Positions 46,335 through 49,300 of a stretch of DNA of 64,000 bases are shown piece after piece. Location: NCBI GenBank assembly GCA_000004695.1, contig CM000153.2:5024001-5088000 (forward strand). The letters run 5' to 3'. The position numbers and the translations under genes were made by a program. The number at the start of each line of letters is the position of its first letter. The first letter of the stretch is position 1. The DNA comes from Dictyostelium discoideum (taxonomy: Eukaryota). The notes under the pieces are model-generated. The model saw only the letters and a list, made by a program, of their open reading frames with translations, was not told the DNA's origin and did no database searches.

Positions 46335-49300
46335 ATGATAACAGAATTTGAAAAATTATTTTGGAAGGTTTTTAAAAATAAATATTTAATAGGTTTAATA
46401 TTTGAAAATGTAAAATGTATGAAATTATCATTTTTAGATGATAATAAATTTTATTTGGGTAATAGAATACTATTTAGATTTATAAGATCACTTTCATGGA
46501 TTACAAAAAAGAGACAATGGCCTCTATTAAAAGATAAATTATTAAGTAATGAATTCATTATAATAAAGAGATCAGGTATTTGTAGATTTTTAAAATATTG
46601 TAAAGATATTGATAATGATGAAGAAATCATTAAATTATTATATGAAAAAAAAAAAGATCAATTAAGTCAAGTTGATTTAATATCAGAATCAGTTAATAAT
46701 AATAATTTAAAAGCATTAAAAATTTTTACAAAACAATTTAATCAAAAAACTAATCATGAACCAATGGATTAAATCATTAGTGAATTATCAGTTAAATATA
46801 GTCAGGATGGTATTAAAATATTAGAATTCTTAATAAATGAAAGAAGTGAAGGTTGTTCAAAAGATCTTGATATATTTTCAATTGTAAATAATATTGAATT
46901 CCTTGAATATCTTTCAGATAGTATTAATAAAATTTTTAAATCCAACAATAATAATAATAATAATAATAATAATAATAATAATAATAATAATAATAATAAT
47001 AATATTAATAATAATAATAATAATAATAATAATAATAATAATAATAATAATAATAATAATAATAATAATAATAAAAATAATAATGATTTTAAATTAATGA
47101 GATTTAGTAAATTTATTATGATTTCAAATTTATGTTCAGAAGAATTACAGATGAAATTAATTGATAGAAAATTAATAGAATGTGAAGATTTAAAAATGAT
47201 AAATGACTTAATTTCATATAATTTCAAAATTTTAAATAATTTTAATGAATTTAAAATGTTACCGAATTCATTTTTTCATTATTTCGAAAGTTATTATTGT
47301 GGTGATGGTGGTAATAGTAGAAAACAGCTTTATAAACATTGTGCAATTTCTTATTGTTTATTTAAAAGATACCTAGAATTTGATAGTAGTGATGAAAGAA
47401 ATAAATTTTCATTTAATATAGTTGAATTCTTTGAAATTGCAATTAATTCATACTCTTTAAGTACTTTTTGGAATTTTGATTTTAGAAAATTAAATTTAAC
47501 TTTACAGGAGAAATATGAAATTTTAAATATTTTTATAAATTTTAAAGTCGATAATTCAAATCCATTGGAAAAGAAATTAAATAATTTGGAAAAAATAATA
47601 AATGTATTATATCCTTTTCAAGTTGTAGAATCACCACTACCTCAAATTGAAGAAGTTTATAAATTCTATAATTATTTAAAATCAAATTATAATGTTAATA
47701 ATTTAATTAAAATAATTCAAAGTTATTATCATTTGAATATAATTAAAGATGGAAATTTAAATTTATTAAATTCATTTTTAAATATATTTAAAGATGAAAT
47801 TAAAGATTCCAATTTCTTTTTTGAAAATGATAAACTTTTAATAAATCAAGATTATTTTATTAATTGTAAGGATAATAGTAATAAAGTTTTATTATTTTTA
47901 GATAGATTATTAGAAATTAAAGAATTTATAAATAGTGATATAATATATTCAAAATCATTCCTTCAATCATTAAAATTATCATTATTTCCAATTAGTAAAG
48001 AGGATTTTTTAAATTCATTATTAAAATTAAAACAACACTTTAAATTAACTCAATCATTACCACCATCACCATCTTTATCAATTAAATTTAATTATTTTAG
48101 TGATTTAATATTTAATTTATTAATTGATAATATCAATGATAAATTATTTATAAGAATGATAATAGAATCATTTATAAATTATTTACATAATGATATGGTT
48201 ATTCAAATTTTAGATAAATTAGTTGAAATTGATTTTGAATCATTTTCTTTAATATTAAATTCTTTGGGTAATGATTATAAGATTAATGAATCATTATTAA
48301 AATATAAAATTAAAGTAAATTCTTCAATTAAAATTTTAATTTCATCATTAAAATGGTATAAATATTTAGATTTTACATATTTAATTGAAGATTTAATTAT
48401 AAATTCAAATGACGGTGGTAGTGATGATGATGGTTCAAGTGAAATTAAATTAGATTTACAATTAATTGAAGAAATAATAAATTTACAAATTAATAATGAA
48501 ATGTATCAATCTAAACCAATATCGGATTTGGTAGTTGATCAGTCATTAAACTTTATGAATGATTTATTTGGTGGTGGTGATGATTTTAAATATATATCTT
48601 ATAATGCAACAAAGTTTGCATTAAATAAAAGAATGTTCAACTTATTAGAATTATTTTATAAACCAAAATATAAAAAATCATTCCATTGGGATGAGGAATT
48701 ATTTTCTTATCCTCCAATTTTACCAAACCCAACCTCATTTCAACAAGATAAACCACAACAACTACAACCATATCAACAAAATCAAAAGATTGAAAAAGAA
48801 GAGAAAGAAATAAAAAAACTAAATAATGCACAAAAAACAAAAGAAATTAATATTAAATCAAAATCAAAAACTAATACTGAATTAAATAATGAATTAAAAC
48901 AAATTCAAAGTTATTATTTTATTGATGATTCAATTATGTTATTGGAATTGGGTGAAGTAAGAGATGCTCTTTTCTATTTTAAGAAATATGGTAAAAATGA
49001 TTTGAAAAGTTTAAGTACAATCAACCTAAAAAAGATAATCAAAGCCTATGAAATGGAAATTGTGGCCCAATATATTTCTTTGTACCTCTCATATTTTGGA
49101 AGAACTGTTACAACTGACCTATTATACTATTCATTAAAAAAGGGCAGAATTGATGTTTACCAATTCCTTTACAATTATAATTCCAACTTTAAAATGATTG
49201 ATCAATATTTTTATACGAATCTAGCTAAAAGAGGTGACATACCAATGATTAAATTTCTATTATCTCAAGATACATTCACTAATTTATCAAATAATAGAAA

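Follow-up and report, generated by a model that had tools for sequence, protein, structure and literature searches.

In S. cerevisiae, the reference strain S288C carries a nonsense allele of FLO8, a gene that is intact in wild relatives. The tgr family of Dictyostelium discoideum includes loci that are pseudogenes in AX4 and that strains other than AX4 have as uninterrupted open reading frames, or ORFs (bioRxiv 10.1101/2025.10.22.684067; Holland et al., 2025, PMC12745789). De novo Nanopore + Illumina genomes have been described for AX2-214, for wild D. discoideum isolates, for two possible cryptic sister species and for D. citrinum (Holland et al., 2025, PMC12745789). Here we analyzed a stretch of 64,000 nucleotides of D. 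discoideum DNA (the window), in which a long reading frame, gene B, is interrupted by one in-frame TAA. We conclude that gene B is very probably a recent, lineage-specific nonsense allele (K146*), and as such a nascent pseudogene in the AX4/AX2-type laboratory lineage. The phenomenon is of a known kind, ordinary biology and not a new mechanism.

Gene B was compared with orthologous loci in two wild D. discoideum (L001 and L002), two D. cf. discoideum (L005 and L006) and one D. citrinum (L007), as well as with the same locus in a further assembly (L004; GCA_054883475.1, CM142510.1). We reached L001 and L002 by a protein search with the conceptual full-length B product, which yielded two D. discoideum proteins at 100% coverage, P0001 (985 aa, locus L001) and P0002 (922 aa, locus L002). 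The pspE protein was used as an anchor to L004, and its orthologues as anchors to the syntenic loci L005, L006 and L007. Exact protein look-up identified the neighbours in the window as pspE (XP_637462.1) and the polyubiquitin-D gene ubqD (DDB_G0286907) of D. discoideum AX4. Gene B, flanked in the window by a 1562-aa gene at 41254..45942 and an FNIP-like gene from 50717 onward, has the same neighbours in L001, L002 and L004-L007, making this a syntenic and stable locus. The window as a whole has a GC content of ~22%, with long AAT (poly-Asn) tracts, and contains the following features:

46335..49388 (+): gene B, its frame broken by the premature TAA only; intact single-exon orthologues in L001, L005, L006 and L007
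46335..46769 (+): codons 1-145, all translatable from the normal start; most of the conserved N-terminal family module
46770..46772 (+): premature stop TAA, K146*, derived from AAA by A-to-T at 46770
46773..47096 (+): stop-to-ATG stretch, 108 codons without ATG, with homology to paralog A as well as the orthologues; holds the poly-Asn tract
46944..47084 (+): poly-Asn tract, (AAT)n, 47 codons here, whose length differs greatly among orthologues, by multiples of 3
47097..49388 (+): downstream ORF of 763 aa, the rest of gene B, 92% identical to P0001 residues 217-985
46713..46805 (+): GC..AG 'intron' deduced from the public 986-aa model (GCATTAAA...GTCAG, 93 nt, 21.5% GC), probably an annotation artefact
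23649..26777 (+): paralog A, an intact frame of 1042 aa that shares ~31% identity with B across the full length

Translation of 46335..49388 (3054 nt) gave 1018 codons with an internal stop at codon 146 and a terminal TGA, about 1017 sense codons in all, with the premature TAA as sole interruption. This confirms what a sequence-only reading of the window had claimed, namely that the ORFs 46335..46772 and 47097..49388 share one frame (47097-46335 = 762 = 254x3) with a lone TAA between them. That reading also had the TAA right after NHEPMD, which is correct (...AAT CAT GAA CCA ATG GAT TAA ATC ATT AGT GAA..., NHEPMD*IISE), and placed it at 46773..46775, one codon too far, the actual position being 46770..46772. 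The next in-frame ATG past the stop is at 47097, and the 108 codons in between are open. With a per-codon stop probability of 0.107 at this base composition, 763 open codons have a probability of ~4e-38, and the remaining two frames of these 3054 nt contain 110 and 229 stops, so that the open frame of gene B is not a product of chance. The number of poly-Asn codons is 47 in the window, 12 in L001 and L002, ~50 in L005, ~32 in L006 and ~95 in D. citrinum (L007), all of these changes being in frame.

Paralog A reads KEPMDCAIKINDMELIEYL at the site homologous to the stop. The alignment there runs KEPMD-C(TGT)-AIKINDMELIEYL, with TGT (Cys, 24219..24221) as the codon homologous to the TAA of gene B, in agreement with the earlier statement that paralog A reads ...KEPMDC at this spot and stays homologous beyond it. 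We searched the 64-kb window for a third family member and found none besides A and B. A dN/dS comparison of paralogs A and B on each side of the stop, which had been suggested from the sequence alone, was rejected: with the two proteins 31% identical, synonymous sites have reached saturation and the ratio carries no meaning. We used orthologue comparisons for dN/dS instead.

Four of the orthologues are intact along their whole length:

L001 orthologue: intact single-exon ORF of 985 aa, 95% amino acid identity to the window
L005 orthologue: intact single-exon ORF of 1052 aa, 94% amino acid identity to the window
L006 orthologue: intact single-exon ORF of 1074 aa, 90% amino acid identity to the window
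L007 (D. citrinum) orthologue: intact single-exon ORF of 1071 aa, 76% amino acid identity to the window

At the stop site, P0001 and P0002 both read EPMD-K-II. The codon aligned with the TAA of the window is AAA (Lys) in L001, L002, L005 and L006 and AGA (Arg) in L007. The comparison with other isolates proposed by the sequence-only reading thus returned a sense codon in 5/5 genomes (AAA four times, AGA once). Since four genomes carry AAA and D. citrinum carries AGA, the TAA is derived; K146* arose when the A at 46770 became T. In a six-way DNA alignment of gene B, all indels were multiples of 3 except three deletions in L002.

Over the flanking 20 kb, the window is 85-97% identical to L001 and L002. 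We considered whether gene B was unusually fast-evolving, given its synonymous divergence between the window and L001 (dS 0.06), and rejected this, the flanking 20 kb being equally diverged. Over 20.5 kb, base substitutions distinguish the window from L004 at a single cluster of five, window 60983..61030 (three G-to-T, two A-to-T), which could reflect either a localised mistake in one of the assemblies or a small cluster of mutations. In D. citrinum an extra gene of 569 aa (L007:13906-15615, +) separates the FNIP-like gene from the B orthologue; neither the window nor any of the other four genomes has it. The number of ubiquitin repeats at the neighbouring polyubiquitin locus differs among these close relatives: polyubiquitin-D in the window (59931..60620, -) encodes 229 aa with 3 ubiquitin units, L005 likewise has 3 units, and the syntenic gene encodes 381 aa (5 units) at L006:2263-3408 and 153 aa (2 units) in D. 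citrinum at L007:2659-3120.

Within L002:10001-12938, the orthologue of 46335..49388, we found three derived frameshift deletions of 4, 11 and 2 bp, of which the two larger sit between short direct repeats (AAT..AAT and ATTA..ATTA), a setting typical of slippage deletions. The public 922-aa model P0002 spans these frameshifts via predicted introns. The L002 branch has an omega of ~0.5, not different from neutral. As judged from its reading frame, this wild isolate is an independent knockout of gene B, and the second knockout suggests that at least some backgrounds can do without the gene.

Nei-Gojobori dN/dS was 0.31-0.45 in every orthologue pair and similar on both sides of the stop, with values of 0.31-0.42 across all pairs downstream of it. 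The window and L001 differ by 31 synonymous and 47 nonsynonymous changes, the neutral ratio being 1:4.6 (binomial P = 4e-6); for the part downstream of the stop the figures are 30 and 44 (P = 4e-6). Gene B has been under purifying selection on both sides of the stop. On the terminal branch of the window, polarised with outgroups, we placed 10 synonymous and, counting the nonsense change, 19 nonsynonymous changes. These give an omega of ~0.41 (P = 0.02 vs neutrality), a value based on 29 changes, too few to separate youth of the lesion from a functional downstream ORF; it fits a very recent event and does not in itself demonstrate relaxed constraint. The value is in line with the other branches, which, excluding L002, had omega values of 0.22-0.38.

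We searched the frame of gene B in the window for a second lesion and found none. A total of 653 single-base changes could make another stop in this frame, and none occurred, which bounds the neutral divergence since inactivation to <0.014-0.016 substitutions per site (95%, assuming equal rates for all base changes); an AT-biased mutation spectrum would be expected to tighten this bound. Had the gene been dead throughout the terminal branch (dS ~0.02), the probability of seeing no new stop would be 0.013 for the frame in its entirety and 0.025 for the part downstream of the TAA. As no second lesion accompanies it, the nonsense mutation is young, at under ~1.5% neutral divergence. One of the options listed in the sequence-only reading was a very young pseudogene with a single nonsense mutation; the AAA or AGA codon in five genomes, the purifying selection and the otherwise clean frame all speak for it. 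The stop is real and derived, gene B is conserved and constrained elsewhere, and the window allele carries no further lesion.

We weighed four other accounts of the TAA. A sequencing or assembly error over a true AAA codon would take a one-base difference, the smallest lesion possible, but receives next to no credence from us. L004 matches the window at all 3054 nt of gene B, TAA included, and over 20.5 kb the two differ at 14 places, nine of them homopolymer or short-repeat lengths and five the clustered intergenic SNPs; because of these 14 differences we regard the two as separate assemblies of near-identical strains, and the TAA of L004 as not copied from the window. The change is also a substitution and not a homopolymer-length change. 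A sequencing error is very unlikely as the source of the TAA. The earlier suggestion of a strain-specific variant or a sequencing error therefore stands for lineage specificity and falls for error, an independent assembly having the same TAA; the presence of the stop in two laboratory-type assemblies suggests that the allele predates their separation. Alternatively, the stop could be spliced out, by a 93-nt GC..AG or an in-frame GT..AG intron, with a near-full-length protein still made. The public annotation of the identical sequence in GCA_054883475.1 does give 986 aa from 3054 nt, and in-frame candidates can be found at 46713..46805 (GC-AG), 46692..46805, 46666..46791 and elsewhere, so that the claim that no canonical GT donor could remove the stop overlooks in-frame GT..AG pairs that do exist but holds in substance, since none of them resembles local introns and each would cut out conserved coding sequence. 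The candidate donors (GCATTAAA, GTTAATAA and GTCAAGTT, 18-21% GC) lack the local donor/acceptor consensus, whereas real introns of two neighbouring genes, compared in three genomes, have GTAAGTAA or GTATGT...TTTTAG/TATAG/TCTAG at 5.6-10% GC. The public model at L004:13658-16711 (986 aa) fits, by its lengths, only the removal of 46713..46805, that is, of 31 codons comprising the stop and 30 conserved codons. The removed segment (ALKIFTKQFNQKTNHEPMD.IISELSVKYSQ) is in-frame coding sequence conserved in the four intact orthologues and in the paralogs, and the annotation pipeline likewise bridged the true L002 frameshifts with 'introns'. Because of its non-consensus ends, its GC content of 21.5% and the conservation of the segment as coding, we read the 46713..46805 'intron' as probably an artefact bridging the stop, and consider splicing highly improbable. 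Exact look-ups of three products (763-aa ORF, 145-aa ORF, deduced 986-aa model) returned nothing.

A full-length protein could also be kept by programmed or high-level readthrough of the TAA, and the frame is indeed open and homologous beyond the stop; however, the stop is unique to the lineage of the window, with a sense codon in all five other genomes. Leaky stops tend to be UGA or UAG followed by a particular 3' motif. Among stop codons TAA leaks least (PMC7783166), and its +4 A context is the same as for most genuine terminators in the window, TAA-A accounting for 12/19 tabulated ORF-ending TAAs (a list that includes the premature TAA and two ORF ends running into introns). Termination should be efficient given this stop and context, and we hold readthrough to be scarcely probable. 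Finally, the gene could be undergoing fission, its 145-aa module and a 763-aa protein initiated at ATG 47097 each being expressed and functional separately. The intact downstream ORF, the omega of the terminal branch and the existence of N-module-only gene models of 124-212 aa in other Dictyostelids are consistent with this, and the (AAT)n tract upstream of 47097, at 100% A+T, could by chance act as a promoter. Yet youth alone accounts for the intact downstream ORF, and the 108 stop-to-ATG codons look like ordinary coding sequence, with ~20% GC vs 9% in the real upstream spacer. The stop would moreover cut a predicted helix in the only confidently folded module, and the number of split orthologues was 0 among those recovered. 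We therefore judge fission to be quite improbable.

A recent nonsense allele is the account we prefer. On this account the D. discoideum / D. citrinum clade has an ordinary protein-coding gene in B, and a single recent A-to-T change at 46770 has turned its AAA (Lys146) into TAA in the AX4/AX2-type lineage. Translation from the normal start would end after 145 residues, inside the N-terminal helical module, and the remaining 871 codons would go untranslated, their gene-like look persisting since there would have been too little time for decay. The outcome would be a young null or severely truncated allele of a taxon-restricted gene that is conserved yet evolves moderately fast. We infer that translation ends at the stop, that the downstream part has no separate expression and that the loss is neutral or nearly so.

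To place the product in a family, we ran an exhaustive HMMER search of 1.84 billion representatives, which yielded 24 relatives, three of them full-length. The others share only the N-terminal ~140 residues and include short models of 124-212 aa; the shared N-terminal pattern is LFWKVFxNKYL...LGNRIxFxxIxSLxW...LLKDKL. The named relatives are from D. firmibasis and D. discoideum, and from these matches the family appears to be Dictyostelid-restricted. A word-indexed protein search missed the ~92%-identical P0001 when queried with a 441-aa internal B fragment, and missed paralog A when queried with the full-length product; AT-rich low-complexity words seem to crowd this index, and its negatives are weak evidence. 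A literature search with candidate DDB_G identifiers near ubqD gave nothing relevant.

Pfam scans of B, its orthologues and the paralogs gave no match above the gathering threshold. Weak Ank_4 matches were found for paralog A (19.5 bits, E = 0.0013) and for the L006 orthologue (15.4 bits, E = 0.024), with a cut-off of 22.7, and no Ank profile matched B, P0001, L005 or L007. An AlphaFold2 model of an intact orthologue, built from a shallow alignment, is all-helical (pLDDT 57, pTM 0.36), with residues 50-170 as its sole confident stretch; the stop falls in predicted helix 141-153. Foldseek matches of this model were generic alpha-solenoids with TM <0.2. The product of gene B is thus predicted to be an all-helical repeat protein, possibly ankyrin-like, and the model says no more than that. 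The truncated 145-aa product would retain most, not all, of the conserved N-terminal module. It is not obviously useless, N-module-only gene models (124-212 aa) being found in the family. As in ankyrin and alpha-solenoid proteins, motifs resembling A-x-x-x-G-x-x-E-x-(I/L)-x-(F/Y)-L occur around the stop of B and at the C-terminus, and the prediction is all-helical; unlike ankyrin-repeat proteins, the gene B family stays below the Pfam gathering score, and its model is of low confidence (pLDDT 57).

Under our preferred reading, that of a recent nonsense allele, AX4/AX2-type strains are natural nulls or severe truncations for gene B. Knock-outs or expression studies of gene B in AX4/AX2-type backgrounds would then be uninformative, and a wild isolate with an intact allele would be the right background. 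In public gene models from two new assemblies, invented introns appear to conceal real lesions; intact genes would then be overcounted and dN/dS scans skewed. That one conserved gene has been knocked out twice, independently, in a shallow clade is a modest datum on gene turnover among social amoebae. It is possible, if unlikely, that the repeated loss of gene B is favoured or balanced, as in a presence/absence polymorphism of the conflict, recognition or defence type, or that the 145-aa N-module is a functional stand-alone product. If loss is indeed favoured or balanced, the gene would be one kept as such a polymorphism.

Compared with FLO8 of S288C, gene B likewise has one premature stop in a laboratory lineage, is functional elsewhere and has an otherwise undecayed ORF. 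Like the tgr loci, gene B is disabled in the reference laboratory strain and intact in related isolates, and it has independent disabling lesions in different isolates. It differs from them in belonging to another, uncharacterised family, and in that the window allele is a single clean nonsense change, unlike the fragments and large deletions seen at tgr loci. Unlike the hypervariable tgr cluster, gene B also lies at a syntenic and stable locus, with a divergence typical of its flanks.
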